NCBI GenBank assembly: GCA_043758895.1
Contig: JAYVMP010000175.1
Coordinates: forward strand, 2,764 to 66,763
Length of the DNA: 64,000 bases
Reading direction: 5' to 3'
Source: Bacteroidota bacterium
GTDB taxonomy: Bacteria; Bacteroidota; Bacteroidia; Cytophagales; Cyclobacteriaceae
Part shown: piece after piece, positions 3,416 through 50,663 of the stretch
Layout: the number at the start of each line of letters is the position of its first letter
How positions within the stretch are numbered: the first letter of the stretch is position 1
Position numbers and translations under genes: made by a program
Notes under the pieces: model-generated
Databases searched by the model: none
The model's input: only the letters and a program-made list of their open reading frames with translations
What the model was told of the DNA's origin: nothing

Positions 3416-3859
3416 ATGACTTTCTTCACCAGTGAATATGAATGTAAACTTGATGCCAAGGGCAGGCTTGTGCTGCCTGCACGGATCAAAAACCAGCTTC
3501 CCGAAGGGGACAGCCAGGAGTTGGTCATTCGCAAAGGTTTCGAGCAATGCCTCATCATTTACCCTTTGGTGGAGTTCAAAAAGGTCTTCTCAAAAATTTC
3601 AGGGTTAAACGAATTCAACGAAGAGTACCGCAAGCTCCAGCGCAACTTTTTGTCGGGCGTGGTCACCGTAGAGTTGGACGGCAATGGGCGTTTTCTGCTG
3701 CCAAAAAACATGTTGACTTACGCCAATATCGACAAAGAGGTACTGCTGGTAGGAACCGGCACGAAGGTGGAAGCATGGAACCCCGCTATTTATGAGAAGC
3801 ACCAAATTCAAGATCCCGGTGAATTGTCGAAACTGGCTGAGAAGTACCTCAACGAGTAG
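3416..3859 (+). CDS. mraZ: Division/cell-wall cluster transcriptional repressor MraZ
   Basis: MTFFTSEYECKLDAKGRLVLP and ELDGNGRFLLP (two AbrB-like repeats); first gene of the dcw cluster. ATG at 3416 preferred over the 3362 start of the ORF track. Confidence 0.97.
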   Translation: MTFFTSEYECKLDAKGRLVLPARIKNQLPEGDSQELVIRKGFEQCLIIYPLVEFKKVFSKISGLNEFNEEYRKLQRNFLSGVVTVELDGNGRFLLPKNMLTYANIDKEVLLVGTGTKVEAWNPAIYEKHQIQDPGELSKLAEKYLNE

Positions 3860-3934
3860 CATCTGTAAAGTAGCTATGAGTTAAGCGCAATGGCCGCGGG
3901 TTATTTGGGTTTTCAACCTTGAACTTTAGTTGAC

Positions 3935-4084
3935 ATGAAGAATTTTAAGAAGCTGAAGATATGGCAAAAGGCTATTGACCTGTTGAGCTATGGTGTTAAA
4001 GAGTCACGAGCCCTAATCCTATCTGGAGTTGATGAAGTGCAGAAGATGATCCAAAGCTTTATCATAACGGTGGAAAGCAGATGA
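3935..4084 (+). pseudogene. Internally deleted four-helix-bundle protein (23S rRNA IVS/TIGR02436-like) remnant, 49 aa
   Basis: MKNFKKLKIWQKAIDL (family N-terminus) joined to ...DEVQKMIQSFI (family C-terminus). Its TGA overlaps the rsmH ATG (ATGA). Confidence 0.72.
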
Positions 4085-5010
4085 CTCAAGGCGCGCGGCC
4101 CGAAACTCGAAGCTATCACAACCCCGTTATGCTCAGCGAGTGCATCGAAGCACTGAACATTATTCCGGAAGGCATCTATGTGGATGCAACTTTCGGGGGA
4201 GGTGGGCATAGTTTAGCCTTGTTGGGGAAGCTAAAAGGTGGAAGGCTGATTGCTTTCGATCAGGATGAAGACGCAAAGAAGGAAGCAGGGAAAATACAAC
4301 ATCGTTCTTTTACATTTTGTCAGGCCAACTTCCGATACATGAAGCAGTATTTGAAGTTGAATGAGGTAACTAAAGTCAATGGAATATTGGCCGATTTGGG
4401 AGTTTCATCGCACCAGATTGATTCAGCAGCGCGTGGGTTTTCTACCCGCTTTGATGGGCCACTCGATATGCGAATGGATCAGCGGGCGAAGTTAACTGCG
4501 GCAAAAATCCTGAATGAATACAGTGAAACGGAATTGCATAAAATTTTTGGAATGTATGGTGAGTTGAAAAATGCAAAGACTGCGGCAAAGAAAGTCGTTG
4601 AGCAAAGGAAGAAGAGCCCTATGAAAACAACACTCGACTTGAAAACGACTTTAAGCCCTATTGCCCCCCGAGGCAAGGAGCATAAATATTTCGCCCAGGT
4701 GTTTCAGGCATTGCGCATCGAAGTAAATCAGGAGATGCAGGCACTTGAAGATTTTTTGCACCAATGTGGCGATGGGATGGAGAGGGGAGGAAGATTGGTC
4801 GTGGTGAGTTATCATTCGTTGGAGGACAGATTAGTGAAGAGCTACATCAACACCGGTAAAATGTTTGGCGAGGTGGACAAAGATTTTTTTGGAAATAAGA
4901 TAAAACCTTTTGAAGCAGTGAATCGAAAACCAATAGGGGCTTCAGAAGAAGAAATAGAAGAGAATAATAGAGCAAGGAGCGCGAAGTTGAGAGTGGCTGA
5001 AAAAAGTTAA
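4081..5010 (+). CDS. rsmH: 16S rRNA m4C1402 methyltransferase
   Basis: HNPVML, DATFGGGGHS, DLGVSSHQID, YHSLEDRLVK, NNRARSAKLR. Confidence 0.98.
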   Translation: MTQGARPETRSYHNPVMLSECIEALNIIPEGIYVDATFGGGGHSLALLGKLKGGRLIAFDQDEDAKKEAGKIQHRSFTFCQANFRYMKQYLKLNEVTKVNGILADLGVSSHQIDSAARGFSTRFDGPLDMRMDQRAKLTAAKILNEYSETELHKIFGMYGELKNAKTAAKKVVEQRKKSPMKTTLDLKTTLSPIAPRGKEHKYFAQVFQALRIEVNQEMQALEDFLHQCGDGMERGGRLVVVSYHSLEDRLVKSYINTGKMFGEVDKDFFGNKIKPFEAVNRKPIGASEEEIEENNRARSAKLRVAEKS

Positions 5011-5071
5011 TCGTTAAATAGTGAATGGGATGTTTAACTAATAATTAATAATCAATAACGGATAACCAACT

Positions 5072-5464
5072 ATGGCGGAAAACAAAATCAGAACAGAACC
5101 CGATCGTACCAACGAAGTACGTATCCGGCCAGCGCAAAGCAATGGCAAGAGTGCGTTCTCGGGTTTGGAAAAACGATTGAAACTCGAATCCTATTTTGAG
5201 GAAGGCTTCCCGGTGCAATACCTCCCCAAGATTTTGTTCGTTATTTTTTTAGGATTGCTCTACATCAGCAACACGCACTATGCCGACAAGACCACACGCA
5301 CTATTGATAGAGCCCAAAGTGAAGTAGAAGATTTGCGTGCCGACTTTACTACACTCAAAGCCGATGTCATGTTTGCCAGTAAACAAAGTGAAGTCGCTAG
5401 AAGGGTAAAGTCAATGGGGTTGGAGGAAAGTTTGAGCCCGCCTTTTAAGATAGCCGTAAAATAA
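5072..5464 (+). CDS. ftsL: FtsL-like cell division protein
   Basis: One TM segment (ILFVIFLGLLYI) plus a coiled coil; lies between rsmH and ftsI. Confidence 0.8.
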   Translation: MAENKIRTEPDRTNEVRIRPAQSNGKSAFSGLEKRLKLESYFEEGFPVQYLPKILFVIFLGLLYISNTHYADKTTRTIDRAQSEVEDLRADFTTLKADVMFASKQSEVARRVKSMGLEESLSPPFKIAVK

Positions 5465-5574
5465 ATAGTAGGCAGTAAGAAGTACACCAGATTAAGGATT
5501 AGATAAATTATTGAAATGACCTGTTTTAAACTGACACTAAATTATAAATCTTCTCTCCTGTTGAGGGATTAGGT

Positions 5575-7665
5575 ATGAATATCAAAAAGTCCATATTAAT
5601 AAGAGTACGCATAGCTTTTTTAGGTGTAGTAATTTTTGCCCTCTGTGTCGGTGCCAAGATTGGCCATATTCAAATCGCAGAAGGTGAGAAGTGGTCGAAG
5701 ATGGCAGAAGAAACGATGTTCGACTATAAAAAAGTGTCCGCCACGCGTGGCAACATTTATTCCGACAACGGAAGTTTGCTCGCTACTTCATTGCCTTTCT
5801 ATAAAGTGGCAATGGACCCCACGCTGCCGAGAGAAGAAGTATTCAAAAAGGGAATTGATTCGCTCGCCTTTCTCCTGGCCCGGTTTTACAAAGACCGCTC
5901 AGCCAAAGAATACAAGGAGATGTTGAAGGACGCGCGCACTTCAGGAAAGCAATACCTCACCATCAGCCGCAAACAAATCAATTATCAAGCGAAGAAGGAA
6001 GTAGCCTCTTGGCCGATCTTCCGTGAAGGAAGATACAAAGGTGGGGTGATTTTCGAAAAAATGGATGTGCGCTATCGTCCATTTTCAAACCTTAGCCGCA
6101 GAACAATTGGATTTGTAAACGAAGATCAAAAAGGCGCGGGCCTTGAATATAGTTTTAATGCGGCACTGGGCGGACAAGATGGTGAGGCGCTCTTTCAAAA
6201 AATCGCTGGCGGGGTCTGGAAGCCTGTGTTTGATGGCAACAATATCCGTGCTGTGGATGGCATGGACATTCAAACAACGATTGATATCAACCTTCAAGAC
6301 GTTGCCGAGACTTCTTTGTTTGAAGCCATGCGCTCGCACGATGCGGATGAAGGCACAGTAGTGGTGATGGAAGTGAAGACGGGTTTCATCAAAGCAATTT
6401 CAAACCTGAGCAAAGACGGTGATGGCGACTATACGGAAAAACTCAACCATGCCGTTGGCGGGTTGTTTGAGCCAGGCTCGACCTTCAAGTTGGTAACGAT
6501 GATGGCGTTGCTCGAGGAAACCAATATTCAATTGACCGACACGATCAATACAGGAAAAGGCGAGTTCACTTTTTATAACAAAAAAGTTCGCGATCATGAA
6601 GAAGGTGGTTATGGACGCATTTCTGTACGTGATGCATTTCAGCGTTCGTCCAACATTGCGATGGCTAAGTTGCTCGACAAACATTTTGGAACAAAGCCTG
6701 AAAAGTTTTTGAATTATGTAGATGAACTGAAATTATCAAAACCGTTGGGCTTGCAAATCAATGGCGAATTATATCCAAAGATCACGCGTCCTAAAGATAA
6801 AAATTGGAGTGGCATTACCTTGCCGTGGATGGCGTATGGGTATGGATTTGAAATTTCTCCACTGCATACCCTTGCGATTTATAATGCGATAGCCAATGAC
6901 GGCAAAATGATCAAGCCGATTTTTGTAACAGCCGTAAGGCAAGCGGAGAACACGATTACCACCTTCGAGACGGAGACATTGAATTCAAAAGTGTGCGCTA
7001 CCAAAACATTGGATCAACTCAAGCTCTTGCTGGAGGGGGTTGTTGAATATGGCACGGCAAAAAATTTAAGGAACTCCTATTACCGCATCGCGGGTAAAAC
7101 CGGAACGGCACAGATATTAAAAGACGGTCATTATGAAAAAAAATACATCACTTCGTTTGTCGGTTATTTTCCGGCCCATGCGCCTAAGTATTCCGCCATC
7201 GTGCTGATAAAAAACCCGAAAGGAATTTATCAGTACGGCAACAGTGTAGCGGGCCCGGTGTTCAAAGATATTGCCGATAATATTTATGCGCGTGACCTCA
7301 GTTTGCATTTGGCGATGGAGAAAAAGAAAGTCACCGAGCCAGGTGTTGTTCCTGTTGTGCGCGCGGGCAAGCACGAAGACGTAGCCCTGTTGTGTAACGA
7401 ACTGGGGGTTTCCAATCATTCAGCGACTGATGAAGAATGGGTTAGGGCTTCCAAAGAAGCAAGTTCAATCGTTCTAAAGAAAAATACGATCATAAAAGAC
7501 CTGGTTCCCAATGTAACCGGAATGACTTTTCGTGATGCCATTTATTTGTTAGAGAAATCCGGCATGCGTGTGTACTTCGATGGCAAGGGCCGGGTAGTTG
7601 AGCAATCACTAGGGCCGGGTACTCGGTTTTCAAAAGGAACCAGGATTCATTTAAAGTTAAGTTGA
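5575..7665 (+). CDS. ftsI: Septal class B PBP (transpeptidase) with C-terminal PASTA domain
   Basis: RGNIYS, STFK (SxxK), SSN (SxN), KTGT; PASTA-like VPNVTGMTFRDA. Confidence 0.95.
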   Translation: MNIKKSILIRVRIAFLGVVIFALCVGAKIGHIQIAEGEKWSKMAEETMFDYKKVSATRGNIYSDNGSLLATSLPFYKVAMDPTLPREEVFKKGIDSLAFLLARFYKDRSAKEYKEMLKDARTSGKQYLTISRKQINYQAKKEVASWPIFREGRYKGGVIFEKMDVRYRPFSNLSRRTIGFVNEDQKGAGLEYSFNAALGGQDGEALFQKIAGGVWKPVFDGNNIRAVDGMDIQTTIDINLQDVAETSLFEAMRSHDADEGTVVVMEVKTGFIKAISNLSKDGDGDYTEKLNHAVGGLFEPGSTFKLVTMMALLEETNIQLTDTINTGKGEFTFYNKKVRDHEEGGYGRISVRDAFQRSSNIAMAKLLDKHFGTKPEKFLNYVDELKLSKPLGLQINGELYPKITRPKDKNWSGITLPWMAYGYGFEISPLHTLAIYNAIANDGKMIKPIFVTAVRQAENTITTFETETLNSKVCATKTLDQLKLLLEGVVEYGTAKNLRNSYYRIAGKTGTAQILKDGHYEKKYITSFVGYFPAHAPKYSAIVLIKNPKGIYQYGNSVAGPVFKDIADNIYARDLSLHLAMEKKKVTEPGVVPVVRAGKHEDVALLCNELGVSNHSATDEEWVRASKEASSIVLKKNTIIKDLVPNVTGMTFRDAIYLLEKSGMRVYFDGKGRVVEQSLGPGTRFSKGTRIHLKLS

Positions 7666-7749
7666 AAAATAATGAGCCCATGTTTAATGCATCGATGCGA
7701 CAAGGCAGCAGGAATGATAAACTAATTTGACAAGTTTGATAGTTGTGAA

Positions 7750-18515: not shown

Positions 18516-18588
18516 AAATCCTTAATCTGGAGCTTGAAATTTTGAATTATAATAAAGCGAACAAACAAAACCACTAAATACTAAAGTC

Positions 18589-20232
18589 ATGTTTGAAACA
18601 GGATCATACAAATTTGATCTGCCGAAGCACCACAAATCGATCATCAAAGTGATAGGCGTGGGGGGCGGTGGCAGCAATGCGGTGAACCACATGTATAAGC
18701 AAGGCATCAAGGATGTCGAGTTTGTTGTGGCCAACACCGATCTGCAGGCGCTCAACAGCAGTCCTGTGCCGTATAAACTTCAGCTCGGTGTGAACCTTAC
18801 AGAAGGGCTCGGTTGCGGAGCAAACCCCGAAGTTGGCCGCGCAGCCGCGTTGGAAAGCAAAGACCAGATTCGCGAAATGCTCGCGGACACAAAAATGGTT
18901 TTTGTTACGGCAGGCATGGGCGGAGGCACGGGCACAGGTGCAGCTCCGGTGATCGCCAAGATTGCCAAAGACATGGACATCCTTACCGTAGGGATTGTGA
19001 CTGTTCCTTTTTCTTTCGAAGGAAAGAAAAAATTTACACAAGCTGAGGTGGGCATTGAGGCGTTTCGTGCGAGCTGCGATACCGTGCTGGTGATTTTGAA
19101 CGACAAGCTGCGCGAAATTTATGGTGATCTTCCGGTAGGGCAAGCTTTTGGCGAGGCCGACAATGTGTTGACCACCGCTGCGAAAGGCATAGCGGAAGTA
19201 ATCACCTTGGCGGGATATGTGAATGTTGATTTTCAAGATGTGCGCACGGTGATGCTGAACGCTGGTGCTGCGGTGATGGGCACTGCGGAAACCCGTGGCG
19301 ACACGCGCGCGATCAAAGCGGCACAGCAAGCATTGGCTTCTCCGCTGCTCGATAACCATGACATCATGGGGTCCAAGAAAATTTTGCTCTCCATTATTTC
19401 GGGTGAGGAAGCTGAATTGAAAATGGATGAGTTGACTGCGATTACCGAATACATTCAACAGCAGGCGGGCGAAGAGGCCGAAGTGATTTTTGGTCACGGT
19501 GTCGATGCAGGTCTTGGTGACCGCATTCGCGTAACGGTGATTGCCACGGGGTTCATCAGCGAAGGAAAAGAAAAAAAGATGGAGAAGACCACACGCGAAT
19601 TGGACCGCTCGCAAATCTCTTTGTTTGAACAACCGGACAACTCGGTGAACCAACGCGGGGCAGAAATCGAGTTGAAATTGAAAGACGATGGTGATCGCCC
19701 GATACTTCAAGAGCCTGAGAAACCGAATGTTCAAAAGCCTGTTGACAAACCAGTTGTGGCTCGCCCTGCCGATAAGCCGATCCTCAACAAACCGGGATAC
19801 CAACCGCTCGACAAGGAGGAAGAAACGGAAGAACGTTCCTATGTTTTTGACTTAAAACCATCGTCCAATTCATTTGTGGAAGAGGAGGGTGAAGAAAGCC
19901 TCTTTGCCGAAGACGATGAATTTAAAGTGGGCAATGAAATCGCTGCCGACCAAGTGATCAACGAGGAGGGCATGATGCAGGTACGCAAAACCAAGGAGAG
20001 GTTGGAGCAACAAGCAAAAGAGCGGAGGGAAAAACTGAAAGCCAACCGGAAGCAGGAGATGACCAAAGAAGAGTTCAACGAAAAGTGGACTTTGCCCGCT
20101 TATTTACGAAGAGGGGTGAAGGTGGACAACGATGTGCCCCATTCTTCCGAGCCCTTTATCTCGCGGTATAACTTGAACGATGATAACAACTTGCTGGGGA
20201 ACAATAAATTTTTGCATGACAATGTGGATTAA
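18589..20232 (+). CDS. ftsZ: Cell division protein FtsZ with long acidic C-terminal linker
   Basis: GVGGGGSNAV, GMGGGTGTG, NVDFQD; 547 aa; C-terminal PAYLRRG peptide. Confidence 0.99.
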   Translation: MFETGSYKFDLPKHHKSIIKVIGVGGGGSNAVNHMYKQGIKDVEFVVANTDLQALNSSPVPYKLQLGVNLTEGLGCGANPEVGRAAALESKDQIREMLADTKMVFVTAGMGGGTGTGAAPVIAKIAKDMDILTVGIVTVPFSFEGKKKFTQAEVGIEAFRASCDTVLVILNDKLREIYGDLPVGQAFGEADNVLTTAAKGIAEVITLAGYVNVDFQDVRTVMLNAGAAVMGTAETRGDTRAIKAAQQALASPLLDNHDIMGSKKILLSIISGEEAELKMDELTAITEYIQQQAGEEAEVIFGHGVDAGLGDRIRVTVIATGFISEGKEKKMEKTTRELDRSQISLFEQPDNSVNQRGAEIELKLKDDGDRPILQEPEKPNVQKPVDKPVVARPADKPILNKPGYQPLDKEEETEERSYVFDLKPSSNSFVEEEGEESLFAEDDEFKVGNEIAADQVINEEGMMQVRKTKERLEQQAKERREKLKANRKQEMTKEEFNEKWTLPAYLRRGVKVDNDVPHSSEPFISRYNLNDDNNLLGNNKFLHDNVD

Positions 20233-20300
20233 ATCCGTTACTGGTTATCTGTTAGTCGTTAATGGCTAAGGGCGATAACGAAGAACGATTACCTGATAAC
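20233..20300. repeat. 7-nt-period array with inverted arms
   Basis: CGTTACT GGTTATC TGTTAGT CGTTAAT, then GATAACG AAGAACG ATTACCT GATAACG. Confidence 0.65.
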
Positions 20301-20312
20301 GGGGAAAGGCAT

Positions 20313-20460
20313 GGCATATCCGACACGACTGGTTTTACTCCATTCGTAGTGGTTGTTGGAAGTAATAATTTTTTGCCGGTGTCGGTGTGCCTTCTTACTT
20401 GGCCAGGTGTTTGTAAAGGCAGTAACTTATTTTTTGCTGCGCTGGCCGTAAGTTTTTTAA
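20313..20460 (+). ncRNA. Candidate structured RNA, two hairpin domains (unidentified)
   Basis: Stem GGCATATCCGACAC / GTGTCGGTGTGCC (13 bp, 1 bulge); stem CTTAC-TT-GGCCAG / CTGGCC-GTAAG followed by T6. No known family recognised. Confidence 0.35.
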
Positions 20461-20464
20461 CCTG

Positions 20465-20497
20465 AAAGGCTGGGAACTATGTCCCGGCTTTTCTTTT
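20465..20497 (+). terminator. Rho-independent terminator downstream of ftsZ
   Basis: AAGGCTGGGA-ACTATG-TCCCGGCTTT followed by TCTTTT. Confidence 0.7.
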
Positions 20498-20641
20498 AGA
20501 TTTGAGTTTACCTGCTTTCTACTTGCATTCCTTCCACTGGTGTGCCTATCCCACAATTATTTTCTTCTATCTTAAACTTTGTTGTTCATTATTTACCTTT
20601 GAAGTCCTTTTAGTAACTGACAGTACTGACTTATAAATTTT

Positions 20642-22285
20642 ATGACTGACGAGAAGAGCTTGAACTTTCTGGAAGAGATCATCGGACGCGATATGAAGGA
20701 AGGCAAATACAAAACCATTGCCACGCGGTTTCCACCCGAACCCAACGGCTACCTGCATTTGGGCCATGCCAAAAGCATTTGCCTGAATTTTGGACTGGCA
20801 CTGAAGTATGGGGGCAAAACCAACCTGCGCTTTGACGACACTAACCCGGTGACGGAAGAAACCGAATACGTAGAGAACATCAAGAGCGATGTGCGCTGGC
20901 TCGGCTTTGAGTGGGCGGAAGAACTCTATGCATCGGATTATTTTCCGCAACTCTATGCGTTTGCCGTGACGCTGATCAAGAAAGGCATCGCCTACGTGGA
21001 CGACAGCACAAGTGAGGAGATGGCACAACAAAAAGGAACGCCAACACATCCTGGCACTAACAACAAATACCGCGACCGCTCCGTGGAAGAAAACCTGAAG
21101 CTCTTCACCGAGATGAAGGAAGGCAAACATCCTGACGGCAGCAAAGTGCTGCGTGCCAAGATCGATATGGCACATATCAACATGCTGCTACGCGACCCGG
21201 TGATTTATCGCATCAAACACGCGCATCATCACCGCACGGGCGATGCGTGGTGTGTGTATCCCATGTACGATTTCGCGCACGGCCAAAGCGACTCGATCGA
21301 ACGGATCACTCACAGCATCTGTACGCTGGAGTTTGTGCCACACCGCGAACTGTACAACTGGTGCATTGAGAAACTGGAAATCTTTCCGAGCAAGCAATAT
21401 GAATTTGCGCGGCTGAATATGACGTACACCATGATGAGCAAACGCAAACTGTTGCAACTGGTGAACGAAAATTTAGTGAACGGCTGGGACGACCCGCGCA
21501 TGCCTACCCTTAGCGGCATGAGGCGCAGGGGCTACACGCCCGAAAGCCTGCGCGAATTTTGCGATAAGATCGGTGTGGCCAGGCGCGACAACCTGATCGA
21601 CATCAGCTTGCTGGAGTTTTGTGTGCGCGACCAACTGAATAAATCTGCCTTGCGCAGGATGGTGGTATTCGATCCATTGAAAGTAGTGATCACCAACTAC
21701 GAAGAAGGAAAATCAGAAATGATGCCGAGCGAGAACAACACGGAGGCGGAAAATGCCGGTGCGCGCGAGATGCCGTTCAGTCGCGAGTTGTGGATTGAAA
21801 AAGAGGATTTTATGGAGAACCCTCCGAAAAAATATTTCCGCTTGGCGCCCGGGCAAATGGTGCGTTTGAAAAGCGGTTTCATTATCAAGTGCGATGAAGC
21901 GATCAAAGACAGTGCGGGCAACGTGACTGAACTTCATTGTACCTACTTTCCCGAAAGTCGCAGTGGACACGATACGTCAGGCCTTCATGTGAAGGGCGTG
22001 ATCCATTGGGTGAGTGTGCAACATGCGGTGCCGGCAGAGGTTCGGTTGTATGATCGATTATTCCTTACCGAAGACATGAGCGCGATTGAAGATGATTTCA
22101 AAAATCATTTGAACCCGAATTCACTGCAACTGTTGCCAAGGGTTTACGTTGAGCCGGAATTGCTCAACGCCAAACGCGAAGATCATTTTCAATTTTTGAG
22201 GATGGGGTATTTTGTTTTGGATGCGGATTCCACAATGGAGAAGTTGGTGTTTAACCGCACAGTGACATTGAGGGATAGCAAGTAG
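20642..22285 (+). CDS. glnS: Glutamine--tRNA ligase
   Basis: [14 protein letters not shown] (HIGH-like), MSKR, FLRMGYF; -7 element TACCTTTG at 20594-20601. Confidence 0.98.
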
Positions 22286-22373
22286 TTACCGCTGCCGTTA
22301 GTTGGAAAATGGTCATTCGTACCGCTACTTTGGGCAACCATTAAATAGAAGCCATTTCAAAAAATAAAAACAC

Positions 22374-22449
22374 GTCTTTGCGAGGACGGACCAAAGCAAT
22401 CCCCTATTAAAACTCCGAATTGAGGATTGCTTTACTTCGATGCAATAAC
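22374..22449. repeat. REP-like palindrome
   Basis: AAAGCAATCC 22393-22402 / GGATTGCTTT 22424-22433 with an imperfect outer stem. Resembles, from memory, the Bacteroidota GTCATTGCGAGG...AAGCAATC REP class. Confidence 0.6.
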
Positions 22450-22522
22450 AATGATATTTTTGAGATGAGTTCTAACAACGAACAATCGGAAAACTATATC
22501 TTTAACAAAATATTTGATTCCA

Positions 22523-23191
22523 ATGAACCGACTCATCCTGTCCCTCCTTGTGCCGCTTGTCAGCACTGCGGTAACTGTTGGTCAAGATATTTCAAAAACG
22601 GAAAAGCAACTTGATTCATTGGAAAGACCAAAAGGAGGAGTTCCTTATTTTTTCTTCGATGATTTTTCAGATAACAGAAATGGCTGGCCCTTGTACTCCA
22701 CCGCTGATCATGAAATGACCATTATTTCTGGTAAATTAAGGATAAAGGGAATTTCAGCCAAGCTGAATTATCGTGCTTGGAGGATTTTGGAAAAACTGGA
22801 TTTAACAAAAGATTTTAGTTGCTCGGTATCAATGACGTGGGTGGAAGGGGTTAACAGCAACGGCTTCGGGTTAGAGTATTGTTCCAATAACTCTTCGGAT
22901 TCATACAATCTTTTTATCATCTCCGGTAGTGGTCATTACGAAATTTTAAAGTTCAGGAACAAATGGATCACCCCAAAACCCTGGACTTTGTCTTCGTTCA
23001 TCAATCAGGGAAATGTGAGCAATGTACTGCTCATAGAAAAGAGGGGTGATTACCTTCAATTTTCAATAAACGAGCATTGGGTTGACAAATTCCCAGTTGA
23101 TCTTGATTACGGCAGCATGTTTGGAGTGAGGGTCTTATCTAATCAAACCGTAGAGTTTGACAACTTTGAACTGCAAGGAACTGCAAAATGA
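22523..23191 (+). CDS. Secreted hypothetical protein, probable beta-jelly-roll (LamG/DUF1080-like)
   Basis: Signal peptide MNRLILSLLVPLVSTA; FFDDFSDNRNGW start and VEFDNFEL end are typical of ConA-like domains. AT-rich. Confidence 0.55.
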   Translation: MNRLILSLLVPLVSTAVTVGQDISKTEKQLDSLERPKGGVPYFFFDDFSDNRNGWPLYSTADHEMTIISGKLRIKGISAKLNYRAWRILEKLDLTKDFSCSVSMTWVEGVNSNGFGLEYCSNNSSDSYNLFIISGSGHYEILKFRNKWITPKPWTLSSFINQGNVSNVLLIEKRGDYLQFSINEHWVDKFPVDLDYGSMFGVRVLSNQTVEFDNFELQGTAK

Positions 23192-23243
23192 TTTAAAAGA
23201 ATGTTGATAGAAGCCATCTCAAAAATAAAAAAAGCGTCTCTGC

Positions 23244-25148
23244 TCAACGAAAGTACTTCTTCCACCACCATTGAAAAACAAGTAGCGCCCAGATGCGTGC
23301 GTGCACATCGCCAGGGTTGGATGAAAATAGTTGTTTTTTTAATTGTGCGATAGTCGAATAGTTAAAAATATTTTGCTCGAGGATAGATTTTTCTGAAAGC
23401 AGGTCGTCTTCAATCAACGATTTCATTTCTTTTCGAAGCCATTTCAACAACGGCACTTCAAAACCCTTCTTTGGTCGGTTATACAATTCTGAAGGAAGAA
23501 AATCTTTGAACGCGTCTTGCACGATTCGCTTTCGGATTTTCGGATTGATCTTAAATTCGCCAGGCAAGGAGAACGCGAAATTCACCAATTCGAAATCCAA
23601 AAATGGCGTGCGCACCTCCAGCCCGTTGGCCATGCTCATCAGATCCACTTTGGCAAGCATGTCGTTGGGCAATACCAAATTCATGTCGGTGAGTAGAATA
23701 TCGTTGATGGTTTCTTTGTCGGGAATGGGTTTTAATAAATTGTCTTTGAGCAGATCAAATTCATGTACATTAAAATTGCTCTTTGATTTCTCTGAGAATA
23801 ATTGATACGCTTTTTCGCGTGAAGCAAAACCAGCCCAATGCCAGTACCGTTCCTTCGAAGAAAGTTTCATGCCTTCAGCGAAGCGTTGCAACTGTCTTGA
23901 TTTGTTGCTAAAAAAATTGTTCCGCGACTGCGGAAAGTTCTTCCACAACGGCAACAACGAACCAGCCAGCGCCTCTTTCCAACCCGAATGAATAGCTCGG
24001 TAAAAAGCTGCGTGTTTGTTGTAGCCCGCCAACAGTTCATCTGCGCCATCACCCGAAAGTGCTACGGTGGCATGCTTGCGAGTCTCTTTGCTCAAAATAA
24101 AAGCATTGATGGCAGATGAATCGGCAAAAGGTTCATCGATGTAATCCAGAATAGAGCTTACATGTTCGTACAGATCATGGTTCGTCAACGAGAAAACGGT
24201 GTGTTCTGTTTTAAAATGCTTGGCGACCAATCTCGCATAGTTGGTTTCATCAAAAAACTTTTCATCGCGAAAACCAATGGAGAACGTGTGAAGATTAGCT
24301 TTATGTTTTGCTGCCAAACCTGTAACGACTGATGAATCAATTCCTCCACTTAAGAAAGTACCTAATGGTACATCGGCTATTAATCTGCGTTGGACAGAGG
24401 CCTCGAGGAGTTGTTTGAATTTTTCTTTAGCGTTATCGTAAGTCAACTGTCGACTATCGACTATCGACTGTTGACTAATTGAGTAATAACTTCTAACTTC
24501 TAACTTCCTGCTTCTAACTTCCAAAAAATGTCCCGGCAAAAGTTTTTTTACATTCTGAAAAATCGTGCGTGGCGCAGGGATGTAATTAAGTTGCAAGTAA
24601 GTATGCAATGAAGTGTAATCTAGTTCTTTCTCAATGCCATACGCGAGAATGGATTTCATCTCCGAAGCGAACAGAAACTTATCTTCATCAAACTGGTAAA
24701 GCAAAGGCTTTACGCCATAGCGATCGCGGGCGAGGAAAAAAGATTGCTCTTGTTTATCATAGATACAAAATGCGAAAAAACCATTCAGTTTATTCAGGCA
24801 CTTCTCCCCATCAAGAATAAAAAGTTTAAGAAGCACTTCTGTGTCTGAGTGAGAGAAGAAGGAAGTAACTCCTCTCACTTCCAATTCTTTTTTTAATTCT
24901 AAAAAATTAAAGATCTCGCCATTATAAATGATGCAGTACCGTTTCGTCTCGTCCCACATCGGCTGATGGGCTACGGCACTCGTATCGATGATGCTCAACC
25001 TGCGATGACCGAGGCCAACAAATTCGTCATGATAAATATCCTGGTTATTAGGCCCGCGTTTGGCGAGGGTTTGTGTGGCTGCAGTTATGTTGACCAGATT
25101 AAACTTGCCAACGAGGTTAAACGCAAAAATTCCGGTGATGCCGCACAT
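23244..25148 (-). CDS. asnB: Asparagine synthase (glutamine-hydrolysing)
   Basis: MCGITG Ntn start, GHRRLSIID, YNGEIFN, FLSGGIDSS, LSGDGADE, RTPFLD. Confidence 0.96.
   Translation of the reverse strand: MCGITGIFAFNLVGKFNLVNITAATQTLAKRGPNNQDIYHDEFVGLGHRRLSIIDTSAVAHQPMWDETKRYCIIYNGEIFNFLELKKELEVRGVTSFFSHSDTEVLLKLFILDGEKCLNKLNGFFAFCIYDKQEQSFFLARDRYGVKPLLYQFDEDKFLFASEMKSILAYGIEKELDYTSLHTYLQLNYIPAPRTIFQNVKKLLPGHFLEVRSRKLEVRSYYSISQQSIVDSRQLTYDNAKEKFKQLLEASVQRRLIADVPLGTFLSGGIDSSVVTGLAAKHKANLHTFSIGFRDEKFFDETNYARLVAKHFKTEHTVFSLTNHDLYEHVSSILDYIDEPFADSSAINAFILSKETRKHATVALSGDGADELLAGYNKHAAFYRAIHSGWKEALAGSLLPLWKNFPQSRNNFFSNKSRQLQRFAEGMKLSSKERYWHWAGFASREKAYQLFSEKSKSNFNVHEFDLLKDNLLKPIPDKETINDILLTDMNLVLPNDMLAKVDLMSMANGLEVRTPFLDFELVNFAFSLPGEFKINPKIRKRIVQDAFKDFLPSELYNRPKKGFEVPLLKWLRKEMKSLIEDDLLSEKSILEQNIFNYSTIAQLKKQLFSSNPGDVHARIWALLVFQWWWKKYFR
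24442..24521. repeat. Two five-unit heptamer arrays inside the asnB coding sequence
   Basis: GTCAACT GTCGACT ATCGACT ATCGACT GTTGACT (24442-24476) and TAACTTC x3 CTGCTTC TAACTTC (24487-24521). Confidence 0.85.
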
Positions 25149-25209
25149 AAAATCCGTTGTTGGTTATTCGAAAACCGTTATTCGTTCAACGGATAGAAAC
25201 GAACGAGAA
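25149..25209. repeat. 7-nt-period array with inverted arms
   Basis: CCGTTGT TGGTTAT TCGAAAA CCGTTAT TCGTTCA, then ACGGATA GAAACGA ACGAGAA. Confidence 0.6.
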
Positions 25210-25974
25210 TCAAAGCGTTTTAATCATCACATTCCTAAACCACACTTCGTGGCCATGATCTTGCAAGTCGATGTGGCCTTTGGGTGCCATGCCATATCCT
25301 TTGGCTTCTTTCCACTTGCCGTTTTCTTTGCGCTTGACCCAGTCGGGTGAACCCAATTCGTATTCCACAATTTTTTGACCGTTGAGCCAATGTTCTACAT
25401 GTTTTCCGTTGGCCACAATTTTTGCAGTGTTCCATTCGCCCACAGGTTTTAATGTTTTGGGCACCGTTGCGTGCATGCCATAGTTGGCTCCAGACTCTTT
25501 CAATTCTTTGGGGACTTCCGGATATCCAATATCATCCTTTATTTGGAATTCAGGGCCTGAGTAATAAGGTTGCTCAAATTCTTCCGTCACACGAAACATC
25601 ACCCCGCTGTTGCCTTGCGGAGAAATCTTCCAATCAAATGTCAGCTCAAAATTTTCAAATTCATCGGTCGTCATAAGGTCTGCGCGTTCATCGCCATCGC
25701 CTTTCATACTTTCATTGAGCGGTTTGCAATGCAATGCACCATCCTTTGCTTCCCAGGTGTTGTTTTTGCGAGCTTTAAAAATCTGCCAGCCGTTGAGGGT
25801 CTTTCCATCGAAGAGCAATTTCCATCCTTCTGTTTTTTGGGCATCGGTAAGGGAGGGCAATGAAGCACCAGTTCCTTCAGCTACCAATGCAGGAGCACTT
25901 TGTGTTTCTTGATTTTCTTTTTTGGCGGGCGAACAGGCCGCTGCCAATAACAAAAGGCAAATTAATTTTCTCAT
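25210..25974 (-). CDS. DUF1080 (3-keto-disaccharide hydrolase-like) lipoprotein
   Basis: Lipobox LAAAC; GWKLLFDGKTLNGW, GNSGVMFR, GEWNT, GHIDLQDHG, VWFRN. Confidence 0.92.
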   Translation of the reverse strand: MRKLICLLLLAAACSPAKKENQETQSAPALVAEGTGASLPSLTDAQKTEGWKLLFDGKTLNGWQIFKARKNNTWEAKDGALHCKPLNESMKGDGDERADLMTTDEFENFELTFDWKISPQGNSGVMFRVTEEFEQPYYSGPEFQIKDDIGYPEVPKELKESGANYGMHATVPKTLKPVGEWNTAKIVANGKHVEHWLNGQKIVEYELGSPDWVKRKENGKWKEAKGYGMAPKGHIDLQDHGHEVWFRNVMIKTL

Positions 25975-47744: not shown

Positions 47745-49340
47745 ATGTCGGCATCACCCTCTTCTGCATTGCCTACCGGTTTCGCGCGGGCCATCATTGT
47801 GATCACCACGATATCGGCCGCGATCATGGAGTTGATTGATACGTCCATCGTCAATGTGGCCTTGTCAGATATCAGTGGAAACCTGGGGGCAACTATTGAA
47901 GATACCTCATGGGTGGTGACGGCTTACGCGATTGCAAACGTGATAATCATTCCGCTCACGGGTTTTTTTGCCAAGTTATTTGGCCGGAAAAAATATTACA
48001 TCGTATCCATTTTTATTTTTACCATCTCTTCGTACATGTGCGGTCAGGCAGGAAGCCTGATCTCATTGGTGATCTGGCGCTTTATTCAAGGCATAGGGGG
48101 AGGTGCATTGCTTTCTACTTCGCAGGGAATTTTGTTTGATGCTTTCGAGCCGGCCAAGCGCCCGATTGCCTCCGCCATGTTTGGAATGGGCATTGTGCTC
48201 GGGCCGACTATCGGGCCCATCTTAGGCGGTGTCATTGTCGATAATTATTCGTGGCCTCTCATTTTTTACATCAATATCCCATTTGGGATCGTGGCTACCA
48301 TCCTCACGTTGCGCTATATCAGACGGACGGAAGATGAAAAGAACCCTAACCGTCAAAAGCCGGTGATTGATTTTCTGGGTATTTCTCTTTTGGCTGTTGG
48401 CGTAGGGAGTTTGGAGTATGTGCTGGAGAAGGGGCAATCGGACGATTGGTTTGAGGACACCACGATCTTAATCCTTTCGATTGCTGCCGCTGTGGGGTTG
48501 ATTACTTTTATTTATCGCGAACTCACTGCCGAGAAGCCCATGATCAATTTGCAGGTAATGAAGCGAAGGAACCTGTGGGCCAGCAACGTGCTCACTTTTT
48601 CGGTAGGCTTCGGCATGTTTGGTTCGGTATTTATTTTTCCCGTGTTGGTGCAGCGCATTTTGGGCTACACACCAACCGATGCGGGCATCGGGTTAGTGCC
48701 GAGTGCCATCGCAGCAATTTTCTGCATGCCCATCATCGGCCGTAGGCTTGGGGCTGGTACACCCCCGTTACTTTTTGTGGTCATCGGTTTTTTGTTTTTT
48801 ATTTTGCATGGCTACACTTCTTCGCTCGTTACACCCGATGTAGGGCTTCCCTTTTTCTTTTGGACACAAATATTTCGGGGGATAGGAACAGCCTGCCTAA
48901 CGGTGCCATTGATCAATCAAGCAGTAGTAGGACTTACGCCACAAGAAATGCCGAGTGGAATTGCGCTCACCAATATGCTTCGGCAATTGGGTGGCGCATT
49001 TGGTATAGCGGTGATGAACACCTACCTGACACAGCGGTATGCCGTGCACCGGAATGACTTAGTGAGCAATTTGCAGCTATCCGATCCGAACCTGATTCAG
49101 CGGCTGTCGCAATACCAGGTTGGTGCGGTGAATGCGGGCATCAACTCAACCCAGTCAACCGATTTTAGTTATAAACTATTGGACTTGGCGGTGACCAAGC
49201 AAAGTTTTTTGATGGCTTATGCCGATACGTTTATATTGATCGCGCTCTTTTTTGTGTGCGTGATCCCGTTCATGTTTTTGCTGCGAACCCAGAAAGTGAG
49301 CAAAGCCACAATGCAAAAAATTTCAGAAGAAAGTCATTAG
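47745..49340 (+). CDS. DHA2 family MFS efflux permease (EmrB-like)
   Basis: 14-TM; MELIDTSIVNVAL, SWVVTAY, RFIQGIGGG, GPTIGPILGG, RQLGGAFG. Confidence 0.95.
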   Translation: MSASPSSALPTGFARAIIVITTISAAIMELIDTSIVNVALSDISGNLGATIEDTSWVVTAYAIANVIIIPLTGFFAKLFGRKKYYIVSIFIFTISSYMCGQAGSLISLVIWRFIQGIGGGALLSTSQGILFDAFEPAKRPIASAMFGMGIVLGPTIGPILGGVIVDNYSWPLIFYINIPFGIVATILTLRYIRRTEDEKNPNRQKPVIDFLGISLLAVGVGSLEYVLEKGQSDDWFEDTTILILSIAAAVGLITFIYRELTAEKPMINLQVMKRRNLWASNVLTFSVGFGMFGSVFIFPVLVQRILGYTPTDAGIGLVPSAIAAIFCMPIIGRRLGAGTPPLLFVVIGFLFFILHGYTSSLVTPDVGLPFFFWTQIFRGIGTACLTVPLINQAVVGLTPQEMPSGIALTNMLRQLGGAFGIAVMNTYLTQRYAVHRNDLVSNLQLSDPNLIQRLSQYQVGAVNAGINSTQSTDFSYKLLDLAVTKQSFLMAYADTFILIALFFVCVIPFMFLLRTQKVSKATMQKISEESH

Positions 49341-49375
49341 GATTTACGGTTTACGATTTTTGATTTACGATTTTA
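49341..49375. repeat. Heptamer array
   Basis: GATTTAC GGTTTAC GATTTTT GATTTAC GATTTTA. Confidence 0.75.
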
Positions 49376-49385
49376 ATAGGACCTT

Positions 49386-50663
49386 ATGAAAAAGATAGTT
49401 GCATCCATTGCCTTTTTGTTTGTATTCGCTTTCGCGGAGGCGCAGACCAACAACGAATTGAATACGCTAATCAATCAATCGTTCACTTATTTTCCACGCA
49501 TTCAGGAACTGCATAAAGCGGCAGAAGTCTCCGACTTGCGCGTGGGGCTGTCGCGCAGCAATTATCTTCCGGTAGTGGCGGGCAACGGATCCTATACCTA
49601 CGTAACTCCTTTAAGCAAAGCGAATTTTGGCGGCAGTGAATTTAAGTTTCAGCCCAACAACAATTACAACTTCAACCTCTCTGTAACACAACCGATCTGG
49701 GATTTTGGAAAGACAAATGCCTTGATCGCAAAATCAAAAACGGAATTGCTAACGGCCACCACCAACATCGAGCAAACCAAAGCACAGGTAGCATCTCAGG
49801 TGGCCACCGTTTATTATTCGATGGTTTATTTAAAGAAAGCGATTGCTGTGGAAGACTCGATTTTGTCTTTTCTGCGGGCTAACAAAACCATCGTTGAAAA
49901 CCGGATCAAACGGGGCGATGTATTGCAGATTGATGCAACCAATATTCAAAGCAACATCGACCTGGAGGAAAACCGAAAAGTAGATTTTGTGAATTCATGG
50001 CAGAAACAAAAAGCGTTGCTGGAATACTCCACCGGGGTGAGCGCGGAGCCGGTGTCATCCGATTTCGATTTTCCCGCTTTCGTGGAGTCGCCCATTGCCG
50101 ACTATGCCAAGCAAAATAATTTTGATCTTCGGTTAGCCAATCAACGGACGTTGGCGAGTGAAATGGATTTGAAATTTTCTGAAAATAACCGCTACCCCAT
50201 TCTATCATTTGTTGGAGGCACGGGTTACAAAAATGGGTACCAGCCCAACATCAATCCACTGATTTTTAATTACGCGTTGGGGCTGAACCTGAGTGTGCCG
50301 ATTTACAATGCCGGAAAAAACAATCAAAACGTTCACATCGCGCAAAAGACATTGGAGGCGAACCAATTGGCCGTGAAGGCCACCGAAAATAATTTGCGCA
50401 GAGAACTTGCCCAAGTACAAGCCGACTTGACCTCAAATGCGGAGCGGATTAAAAATTCAGAAAGCCAAGTGAACTATGCACGGGAAGCTTTGACGTTGAC
50501 CCAATCGCGCTACCAGCATGGTGTGGCCACGCATTTGGATTTGCTCAATTCATCTTCCAACCTGCAACGTATTTTGCTTAACCAAATCCAGTTTCAATAC
50601 CAACTTTGCACGGCCCGTATTGAGCAGGCAAGGTTGCTCGGGTGGAAGTATTGGGGAGAATGA
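49386..50663 (+). CDS. TolC family outer-membrane channel
   Basis: Signal peptide, two OEP repeats, QPIWDFG, LSVPIYNAG, RYQHGVATHLDLL. Confidence 0.93.
   Translation: MKKIVASIAFLFVFAFAEAQTNNELNTLINQSFTYFPRIQELHKAAEVSDLRVGLSRSNYLPVVAGNGSYTYVTPLSKANFGGSEFKFQPNNNYNFNLSVTQPIWDFGKTNALIAKSKTELLTATTNIEQTKAQVASQVATVYYSMVYLKKAIAVEDSILSFLRANKTIVENRIKRGDVLQIDATNIQSNIDLEENRKVDFVNSWQKQKALLEYSTGVSAEPVSSDFDFPAFVESPIADYAKQNNFDLRLANQRTLASEMDLKFSENNRYPILSFVGGTGYKNGYQPNINPLIFNYALGLNLSVPIYNAGKNNQNVHIAQKTLEANQLAVKATENNLRRELAQVQADLTSNAERIKNSESQVNYAREALTLTQSRYQHGVATHLDLLNSSSNLQRILLNQIQFQYQLCTARIEQARLLGWKYWGE

Follow-up and report, generated by a model that had tools for sequence, protein, structure and literature searches.

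Why are the spacers of an essential, syntenic operon filled with degenerate tandem arrays of 7- and 8-nt units, and where do such arrays come from? The question is raised by a 64,000-nt stretch of DNA (the window, C175:2764-66763) from the genome of an uncultured Cytophagales lineage (3.29 Mb, 287 contigs, 44% GC), which contains a complete dcw cluster at 3416-20232 (mraZ, rsmH, ftsL, ftsI, murE, mraY, murD, ftsW, murG, murC, ftsQ, ftsA, ftsZ). A preliminary description had listed ten array sites in the window and proposed that they are empty or scarred sites of a repeat-generating insertion system, linked to genes for four-helix-bundle (4HB) proteins of the TIGR02436 family. The arrays belong to the same system as cassettes that carry 4HB genes, and some of them are demonstrable remnants of such cassettes; inverted symmetry and the status of a scar apply to a minority of the listed sites. 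The arrays are probably parts of a family of foldback cassettes, of which the dcw operon of the window holds mainly decayed and miniature forms.

Period, unit and position of the arrays

The arrays are enriched both in the window and genome-wide. In the window, Tandem Repeats Finder (TRF) returned 12 rows with a period of 7 or 8 nt, as compared with 3.95 ± 1.96 in block-wise dinucleotide shuffles, and 6 rows with a period of 14-16 nt (0.95 in shuffles), and the remaining periods were at the chance level (11 versus 8.7). Eight of the ten listed sites gave a row with a score of at least 30, the exceptions being 16970-17107 and 25149-25209. Genome-wide, we scanned 1575 spacers of 30-600 nt, delimited by crude gene calls based on open reading frames (ORFs), and counted a spacer as locally periodic if any 21 nt of it contained at least 15 matches at a given lag. 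Periodicity at lag 7 was found in 67 spacers (7.5 ± 2.5 in shuffled ones), at lag 8 in 28 (5.8) and at lag 14 in 44 (7.8). No other lag was enriched in these spacers, and chunks of coding sequence were likewise at chance. Clearly, arrays with periods of 7 and 8 nt do fill operon spacers, as had been described, and their units do differ between sites, since the 98 arrays found genome-wide fell into 29 unit clusters.

The position of the arrays is not random with respect to the direction of the neighboring genes. They occur in 69 of 990 co-directional and in 25 of 325 divergent spacers, but in only 4 of 260 convergent ones, which is the chance level. This scarcity in convergent spacers counts against transcription terminators and against plain slippage driven by composition. 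The intrinsic terminator was rejected for this reason, and also because the foldbacks are AT-rich and lack a T run. The distribution fits a promoterless cassette that needs read-through, and whose right arms are kept as leader sequence for the following gene. Among the 44 arrays located in a spacer's 3' half, 31 finish at most 8 nt from the start codon, a distance that is approximate with our gene calls, and these arrays are G-poor (12% G).

Two of the arrays had been described as running up to genes with TTG starts. This stood in the case of murG, whose TTG at 13522 is common to two relatives; the array before it at 13490-13521 has a counterpart in L003 and L004, in which an ATTCTAN array also precedes TTG. 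In the case of mraY, the array probably accounts for the TTG at 9334 as an artefactual start, and the relatives start at an ATG that corresponds to 9340.

Cassettes, remnants and empty alleles

With the NCBIfam cut-off for TIGR02436 at 24 bits, the genome has three matches of its own: one intact gene (contig C259, 95 bits), whose protein matches PDB 2RLD, an uncharacterised protein with five chains, one pseudogene and one fragment. Together with the remnant in the window they make four 4HB loci, and all four lie between operon genes and have site-specific inverted arms on their flanks.

The dcw cluster of the window was compared with those of 16 same-genus genomes (L001-L016) and of four genomes from other families. 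Synteny is kept across these relatives, and spacer lengths are not. Most same-genus junctions measure 0-40 nt, and 13 of 17 same-genus loci, the window included, have an ATGA overlap of mraY with murD. Among the 17 genomes the window has the most expanded spacers, with 11 of 12 junctions of at least 64 nt, where most relatives have less than 40 nt. Same-genus spacers of 413-513 nt were found at mraZ-rsmH (L003, L007), murE-mraY (L001, L011), mraY-murD (L004, L008) and murD-ftsW (L001, L007, L011), and spacers of 433-471 nt with three 4HB genes at murE-mraY, murD-ftsW and murG-murC of L017, which belongs to another family. Every long dcw spacer bears an ORF; the seven tested score 73-123 bits on TIGR02436, and all those of the same genus score at least 40 bits on a hidden Markov model (HMM) built from 52 4HB proteins of the genus. 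In total, nine intact 4HB genes reside in the 16 same-genus dcw clusters, across four spacers that are likewise expanded in the window. The preliminary description had named orthologous spacers that never contain 4HB genes as an observation that would speak against its proposal; intact genes are present in all four of these spacers.

The 52 cassettes of the genus provided 104 arms, and arm pairs taken across different cassettes served as a control. The similarity of the left arm to the reverse complement of the right arm exceeded the 95th percentile of the control in 34 of 52 cassettes and the 99th percentile in 24, which demonstrates that the arms of a cassette complement each other. A period of 7 was detected in 49 of the 104 arms and a period of 8 in 5, with any other lag in at most one. 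Left arms are G-rich and C-poor, and right arms are the opposite. Mismatches between paired arms were of the G-U type in 45 cases and of the A-C type in 45 cases; this balance does not point to selected pairing in the sense RNA, and the idea of a stem kept by selection at that level was rejected. The pairing of the arms would matter as DNA, in a hairpin or cruciform, or would reflect the way in which arms are made. Of 39 cassettes whose orientation could be resolved, 33 are co-directional with both neighbors.

Symmetry is also a property of the arrays as a class: 19 of 82 array spacers free of MITEs (miniature transposable elements with inverted repeats) hold the reverse complement of their own array (score of at least 20), and cross-spacer and shuffled controls gave none. 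At the level of individual sites the described inverted arms fared less well, as they are significant at only three of the ten, plus the 4HB remnant, and two further sites (10565-10724 and 16970-17107) owe much of their apparent symmetry to the inverted repeat and target duplication of a MITE. An excess of RNA folding was found at 9214-9336 (z -3.1), 13373-13521 (z -4.1, with a central hairpin of AGCT units) and 20230-20305 (z -3.4). There was no such excess (z -0.8 to +0.9) at 16113-16198, 25146-25212, 5008-5074, 17140-17210 and 49330-49390, and these are single arrays abutting start codons.

Two spacers of the window can be tied to cassettes. At mraZ-rsmH, a 49-codon ORF matches the 120-residue orthologs in L003 and L007 at both ends when aligned, over their N-terminal 17 residues and the C-terminal DExQKMxQSFI, with about 71 residues missing; it scores 12.5 bits on the genus HMM over residues 1-16 and is too short for the NCBIfam cut-off. 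Judged by this alignment, it is an internally deleted ortholog of the L003/L007 4HB gene, and in L001 the N-terminal 32 residues are all that remains at this site. The arms at 3860-3934 and 4085-4114 are homologous or similar to those of intact cassettes, and the architecture of the arrays does flank the four-helix remnant, as had been noticed. At mraY-murD, the window has the left-arm sequence of L004 and its derived murD start (ATGGTAAATCG), which in L004 prolongs the right-arm unit AAATCGT over codons 1-4 of murD; in species that lack this cassette, the two genes overlap by ATGA and murD has another N-terminus. In translation, the spacer also weakly resembles the C-terminal 18 residues of the L004 4HB protein (39% identity; E 0.007, for a very small search space). 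It is a derivative, without the gene, of the cassette that L004 has in full.

Filled, remnant and empty alleles of the same junctions thus form a series. Of two sister species, L008 has a cassette at mraY-murD and L009 has the ATGA overlap and no arrays, which shows that the arms are gained and lost along with the gene and that no arrays are present at a truly empty site. Truly empty alleles are junctions of 0-20 nt, such as this overlap. Short direct repeats, ATGA and TAATG, stand on both sides of the insert in L008 and L004, and slippage between them could regenerate the clean junction. Hence, the idea of scarred sites holds for two spacers of the window, and that of empty sites marked by arrays does not, as empty alleles carry none and most arrays have no coding remnant.

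Arms tend to travel with the gene. At non-orthologous sites, the arms of cassettes whose proteins are at least 55% identical have 4.3 6-mers in common, as compared with 2.3 for unrelated proteins (p 0.0014). Orthologous 4HB pairs have 57-82% protein identity, even though 4-fold degenerate sites are saturated in every pair but L003/L007 (0.70), which demonstrates purifying selection on the 4HB proteins. Recent horizontal spread of the cassettes was rejected, as their divergence about equals that of the host flanks. From these comparisons the cassettes appear to be old, selected residents and not recent invaders.

The arrays are also co-distributed with 4HB genes. In samples of 80-400 kb from each of eight same-genus genomes and in the whole of the present genome, the fraction of spacers with arrays followed the density of TIGR02436 genes, counted per Mb (Spearman 0.92, p 5e-4; nine genomes, no phylogenetic correction). 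Array spacers numbered 7 of 289 in three genomes without a 4HB gene and 42 of 576 in three genomes with seven or more. The link to 4HB genes was therefore borne out, as the arrays are of the same class as the arms that bracket TIGR02436 genes.

Outside the dcw cluster, both spacers flanking a thiolase gene in an apparent fatty-acid oxidation operon hold 4HB cassettes (L139, L145, L160, L171; L140, L144, L146, L147, L161; C18:5531-5857 in the present genome), with protein lineage and unit varying by species. These spacers are hot spots comparable to the dcw spacers.

Between the ftsZ stop codon and a conserved non-coding element downstream of it, 67 relatives have inserts of 10-168 nt, of which 22 have a period of 7 and none any other period, 25 are two-armed, and the units are many. 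A 4HB gene at this site was considered and rejected, as there is none among 80 relatives. Gene-less foldbacks with diverse units and no gene need not be scars of a gene-bearing insertion, and we regard them as elements that exist or arise on their own, as non-autonomous relatives of the cassettes rather than always their scars. The non-coding element itself (20310-20420; ATGGCATATCCGNCACGACTGGTTTTACTCCATTCGTAGTGGTTGTTGG..., then the complement GCCGGTGNCGG) is strongly conserved downstream of ftsZ in at least 67 related genomes. Rfam has no family in the window, and neither the element nor the region 20200-20700 has a match at E <= 1; the element could represent a structured RNA that lacks annotation, or else the leader of the gene that follows (20642-22285).

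The picture that we propose is as follows. A complete cassette would have three parts: on the left, an arm in which a unit of 7 or 8 nt stands 3-8 times in tandem; then one gene without a promoter, about 120 codons long, that encodes a TIGR02436 4HB protein; and on the right, an arm of reverse-complement units. It would occupy transcribed spacers, mostly co-directional ones and in the same orientation, with its arms touching the stop and start codons of the neighbors. Arms and gene would be gained and lost as a block, either by slippage between short direct repeats, which would leave clean junctions, or by internal deletion, which would leave scars, and foldbacks devoid of a gene would be non-autonomous relatives that can be present or emerge independently of it. 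The dcw cluster of the window would accordingly hold an internally deleted gene with both arms (mraZ-rsmH), a gene-less derivative later hit by a MITE (mraY-murD), three gene-less two-arm foldbacks, and several single arms kept beside start codons, which would today serve as the leader of the gene downstream and in some cases contribute its first codons. The generating activity of this "repeat-generating" system is putative.

Table 1. Arrays, cassette parts and MITEs of the window, in window coordinates.
Feature	Position	Strand	Evidence or remark
Left arm of the mraZ-rsmH cassette remnant (AGCT/GAGTT-type units)	3860..3934	+	Sequence; homologous to arms of intact L003/L007 cassettes in the same spacer
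49-codon TIGR02436-type remnant, internally deleted	3935..4084	+	TGA stop overlaps rsmH ATG (ATGA)
Right arm of the mraZ-rsmH cassette, now read as first rsmH codons	4085..4114	+	Resembles L007 right arm (gcggctcaaggcttgaagc vs gactcaaggcgcgcggcccgaaactcgaagc)
Single array (TAATNAA/TAAC-type) up to ftsL start codon	5035..5071	+	TRF period 7; fold z +0.45
Gene-less two-arm foldback, murE-mraY, 8-mer ATTTGAAA / TTTCAAAT	9217..9333	+	RNA fold z -3.1
Left arm (GATTTAA/GATTTTA units) of gene-less mraY-murD cassette derivative	10564..10624	+	Left-arm sequence common with intact L004 cassette
88-nt MITE, unrelated to arrays	10625..10712	.	Target duplication GATTTTGGATTT on both sides
Remaining mraY-murD scar up to derived murD start ATGGTAAATCG	10713..10805	+	murD start common with L004
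Composite ftsW-murG spacer	13371..13521	+	CAAT-type array 13374-13402; AGCT-unit hairpin ~13410-13489; ATTCTAA array 13490-13521; TRF
murG-murC spacer, CAAT-type single array just past stop codon	14635..14732	+	No fold excess
murC-ftsQ spacer, small hairpin and short AACTCGA array without paired arm	16116..16195	+	TRF 2.1 copies; fold z -0.84
Second MITE copy, 89 nt	16993..17081	.	Target duplication GGGTTTAATG; lies within a GTTTAAAG-type 8-mer array of four units
Single TAACAAT/TAACGGA array, unstructured ftsA leader	17150..17207	+	TRF period 14; fold z -0.3
Gene-less two-arm foldback (CCGTTAC/TGGTTAT units and complement) directly after ftsZ stop	20233..20305	+	Fold z -3.4
Weak CCGTTNN periodicity between two minus-strand genes	25149..25209	-	No TRF row; fold z +0.34; weakest listed site
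Single GATTTAC array, 5.3 copies, upstream of start codon at 49387	49337..49375	+	TRF; no fold excess

Some sites of Table 1 deserve a comment. The left arm of the murE-mraY foldback is 82-85% identical in L004 and L007, where 4-fold sites are 38-46% identical, and the pre-murG array is likewise conserved far above 4-fold sites; such conservation of gene-less arms is consistent with their co-option as host leaders. In other relatives the murE-mraY spacer has an intact 4HB gene with different arms. A reading of this left arm as a remnant "M-x-x-FENLK" N-terminus was suggestive only, and it has no score on the genus HMM. The array at 49337-49375 has a unit of the same family as the mraY-murD left arm of L004. 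A motif, (A/C)AACCACT(A/T)A, lies 8-20 nt upstream of the ftsA and ftsZ starts (about 17183-17207 and 18566-18588) and recurs in nearly all same-genus genomes for which these spacers were listed, being absent from the L013 ftsQ-ftsA spacer; it is probably part of an initiation region without a Shine-Dalgarno sequence, or an internal promoter. Inside a minus-strand asnB-like ORF of 634 residues (23244-25148), adjacent ACTATCG and TAACTTC arrays of five units each stand in frame at 24446-24524, in the same style as the intergenic arrays, yet within an intact gene.

Alternative origins of the arrays

Several results weigh against the cassette origin of the arrays. The genome has one intact 4HB gene against about 90 array spacers with 29 unit clusters. 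Coding remnants were detected with the genus HMM in only three known spacers genome-wide, and array spacers are not enriched in them. Genomes without a 4HB gene still exceed chance, with 7 array spacers where about 1.5 are expected (shuffles, about 0.4%), and the loci after ftsZ of 80 relatives contain no 4HB gene. In nucleotide identity the cassettes resemble their host flanks, which gives no evidence of recent mobility, and searches for Y1 HUH transposases and reverse transcriptases found no mobilising enzyme. Moreover, the correlation across nine genomes ignores phylogeny and includes some small samples, and the distances between arrays and start codons depend on crude ORF-based gene calls. 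Clearly, not every array is a scar.

Several of these results would fit if the arrays were ordinary simple-sequence repeats, born by slippage in place, and if 4HB genes landed secondarily in AT-rich, hairpin-prone spacers. Heptamers are known to be over-represented, with slippage as a proposed cause (PMC4692102 citing Mrazek 2007; PMC4679880); there are arrays even in genomes that lack 4HB genes, the site after ftsZ is gene-free in 80 genomes, array spacers have no excess of coding remnants, and the units are very diverse. We nevertheless consider this explanation rather unlikely, as slippage in place would leave unexplained why array density tracks 4HB density (rho 0.92), and why filled and empty sister alleles differ by arms and gene jointly, the empty ones being array-free. 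In addition, convergent spacers of similar composition are at chance, the arms of 34 of 52 cassettes complement each other but not those of other cassettes, and the unit co-varies with the protein lineage at non-orthologous sites.

A role as host regulatory RNA would account for the position of many arrays. They would serve as unstructured, G-poor leaders for the Shine-Dalgarno-independent initiation of Bacteroidota and as stem-loops for the processing or stabilisation of polycistronic mRNA segments (by way of RNase III sites like those of rRNA intervening sequences), with 4HB genes as passengers. The proximity of 31 of 44 arrays to start codons, their low G content, the avoidance of convergent spacers, and the conservation of the murE-mraY left arm and the pre-murG array (82-85% versus 38-46% at 4-fold sites) all agree with it. 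TAACTGA repeats right before start codons have been proposed as translational regulators (PMC4679880), and RNase III cuts the stem of the intervening sequence of Coxiella (PMC4990558). However, both the presence and the unit of an array vary among close species at one and the same junction of an essential operon, G-U mismatches are no more frequent than A-C ones (45 versus 45), a paired right arm would mask the very leader that it should expose, and no Rfam family matches. As an origin of the arrays, host RNA function is thus improbable.

The MITEs of the window are an element separate from the arrays, with a duplication length that mismatches the array period. Their ends are AATGTCGTTTCCTTAAG...CTTAAGGAAACGACATT, and the genome has 27 complete copies plus fragments, as well as a 218-nt long form with an extra GC-rich hairpin; no transposase was identified for the 88-89-nt element. 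The target duplication is 10-12 nt at the two window sites and mostly 10-11 nt genome-wide. The MITE was rejected as a cause or strong targeter of arrays on account of this length and of the low number of pre-insertion sites within arrays (3 of 27, 0.7 expected). A by-product of classical MITE activity, in which terminal inverted repeats, target duplications and excision footprints accumulate as tandem copies, is largely refuted as a general explanation and very improbable, since its support (MITEs at two of the ten listed sites, where inverted repeat and duplication mimic arms, and the mild enrichment at pre-insertion sites) is outweighed by a duplication of 10-11 rather than 7-8 nt, arrays that have no common terminal sequence or fixed-length duplication and whose arms differ between sites (29 clusters), 82 of 91 array spacers free of MITEs, and cassette arms that flank a gene and not a MITE. 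A second family of GC-rich, REP-like hairpins (CCTCACCCC...TCTCC-loop-GGAGA...GGGGTGAGG) was observed in the same kinds of operon spacers of relatives, namely after ftsZ in L177, L179, L184 and L194, at rsmH-ftsL in L006, ftsL-ftsI in L004 and ftsI-murE in L017, and in the long MITE form.

With regard to the mobilisation of the foldback cassettes, no transposase had been seen in the window, and the enzymes searched for do not co-distribute with cassettes. Counts of Y1 HUH transposases (PF01797) are unrelated to those of 4HB genes (8 4HB and no Y1 in G003; no 4HB and 7 Y1 in G015), and an IS200-type or REP-associated tyrosine transposase (RAYT) as mobiliser was rejected. Similarly, reverse transcriptase (PF00078) is absent from this genome and from G003, G004, G013, G018 and G022, five relatives with 7-10 cassettes each, and a link to reverse transcriptases or diversity-generating retroelements (DGRs) was rejected because most cassette-rich relatives lack the enzyme.

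Relation to known systems

Over-representation of heptamers has been known in many bacteria since at least 2007 and has no accepted origin, and the TIGR02436/S23p family is widespread, with a solved structure and no known function; the results described here tie the former puzzle to the latter family. A full-text literature search found no paper that names TIGR02436, PF05635 being named only in a review of DGRs, and no published link between heptamer repeats and the TIGR02436 gene family. The same junctions occur as a clean overlap, an intact cassette, an internally deleted gene and a gene-less foldback, a natural experiment in an essential syntenic operon that makes gain, loss, co-option as leaders and recognition of repeats by the protein directly testable. 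It also matters for annotation, as murD and rsmH take their start and N-terminal codons from array-derived sequence, which also gives rise to spurious TTG starts. A wider conjecture, which we put forward tentatively, is that TIGR02436 proteins might be trans-acting partners of foldback elements without transposases: a given lineage would be specific for a 7-8-nt unit of its own and assist in building, maintaining or moving inverted arrays of that unit, and gene-less foldbacks and single arrays, including much of the unexplained heptamer content of bacteria and the ORF-less intervening sequences of rRNA, would be non-autonomous or decayed products, sometimes co-opted as leaders or first codons.

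Among known elements, repetitive extragenic palindromic sequences and bacterial interspersed mosaic elements (REP/BIME) are also short intergenic palindromes within operons without coding capacity. Unlike the present arrays, with their diverse units and no link to Y1 counts, they have one consensus per family and depend on RAYT. The 4HB proteins share their fold class with Avd of DGRs, the closest solved structure being 2RLD with its five chains, and resemble it distantly in sequence, with NF033474 matches at E 6e-8 to 4e-3, below its cut-off; in contrast to DGRs, reverse transcriptase is absent here and from most cassette-rich relatives, and there is no pair of template and variable repeats.

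Foldback transposons of Drosophila and other eukaryotes have long inverted arms of degenerate short tandem repeats in variable copy number. Inverted repeat arms with or without a central coding segment are common to them and to the cassettes; the resemblance is architectural only, as those elements are eukaryotic and much larger, and no homology is implied.

Closer to the arrays are the heptamer repeats of bacteria. Intergenic TAACTGA repeats stand before start codons in Beggiatoaceae, cyanobacteria and some Bacteroidetes (PMC4679880), and 70-75 of the GGGAATC repeats of Xanthomonas form convergent, that is, inverted pairs (PMC4692102). The arrays described here consist of head-to-tail 7-nt units, are intergenic, and are over-represented relative to other periods. 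Like these repeats and the short tandemly repeated repetitive sequences (STRR) of filamentous cyanobacteria, they often stand just upstream of starts and vary between close relatives, and inverted pairs of arrays are a trait that they have in common with GGGAATC. They differ in having dozens of units per genome, where the published repeats have one dominant unit, and in their association with 4HB cassettes, where the published ones have no protein gene.

Intervening sequences that bear an ORF are found in the 23S rRNA of Leptospira, among other bacteria. The one in helix 45 of Coxiella burnetii 23S rRNA carries an S23p ORF and is excised by RNase III (PMC4990558). The cassettes differ from these sequences in their host, which is the spacer of an mRNA operon and not helix 25 or 45 of rRNA, all cassettes and arrays being located between protein-coding genes, and in their flanks, which are tandem 7-8-nt arrays with a unit that varies by cassette and without a sign of RNA-stem selection in the wobble test. 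At the same time, both place a small S23p / PF05635 / TIGR02436 gene in the loop between complementary flanks, as found here for the 34 of 52 cassettes above the 95th percentile, and both are selfish-looking inserts in a highly transcribed unit, with an ORF that is prone to reduction and with short ORF-less forms.

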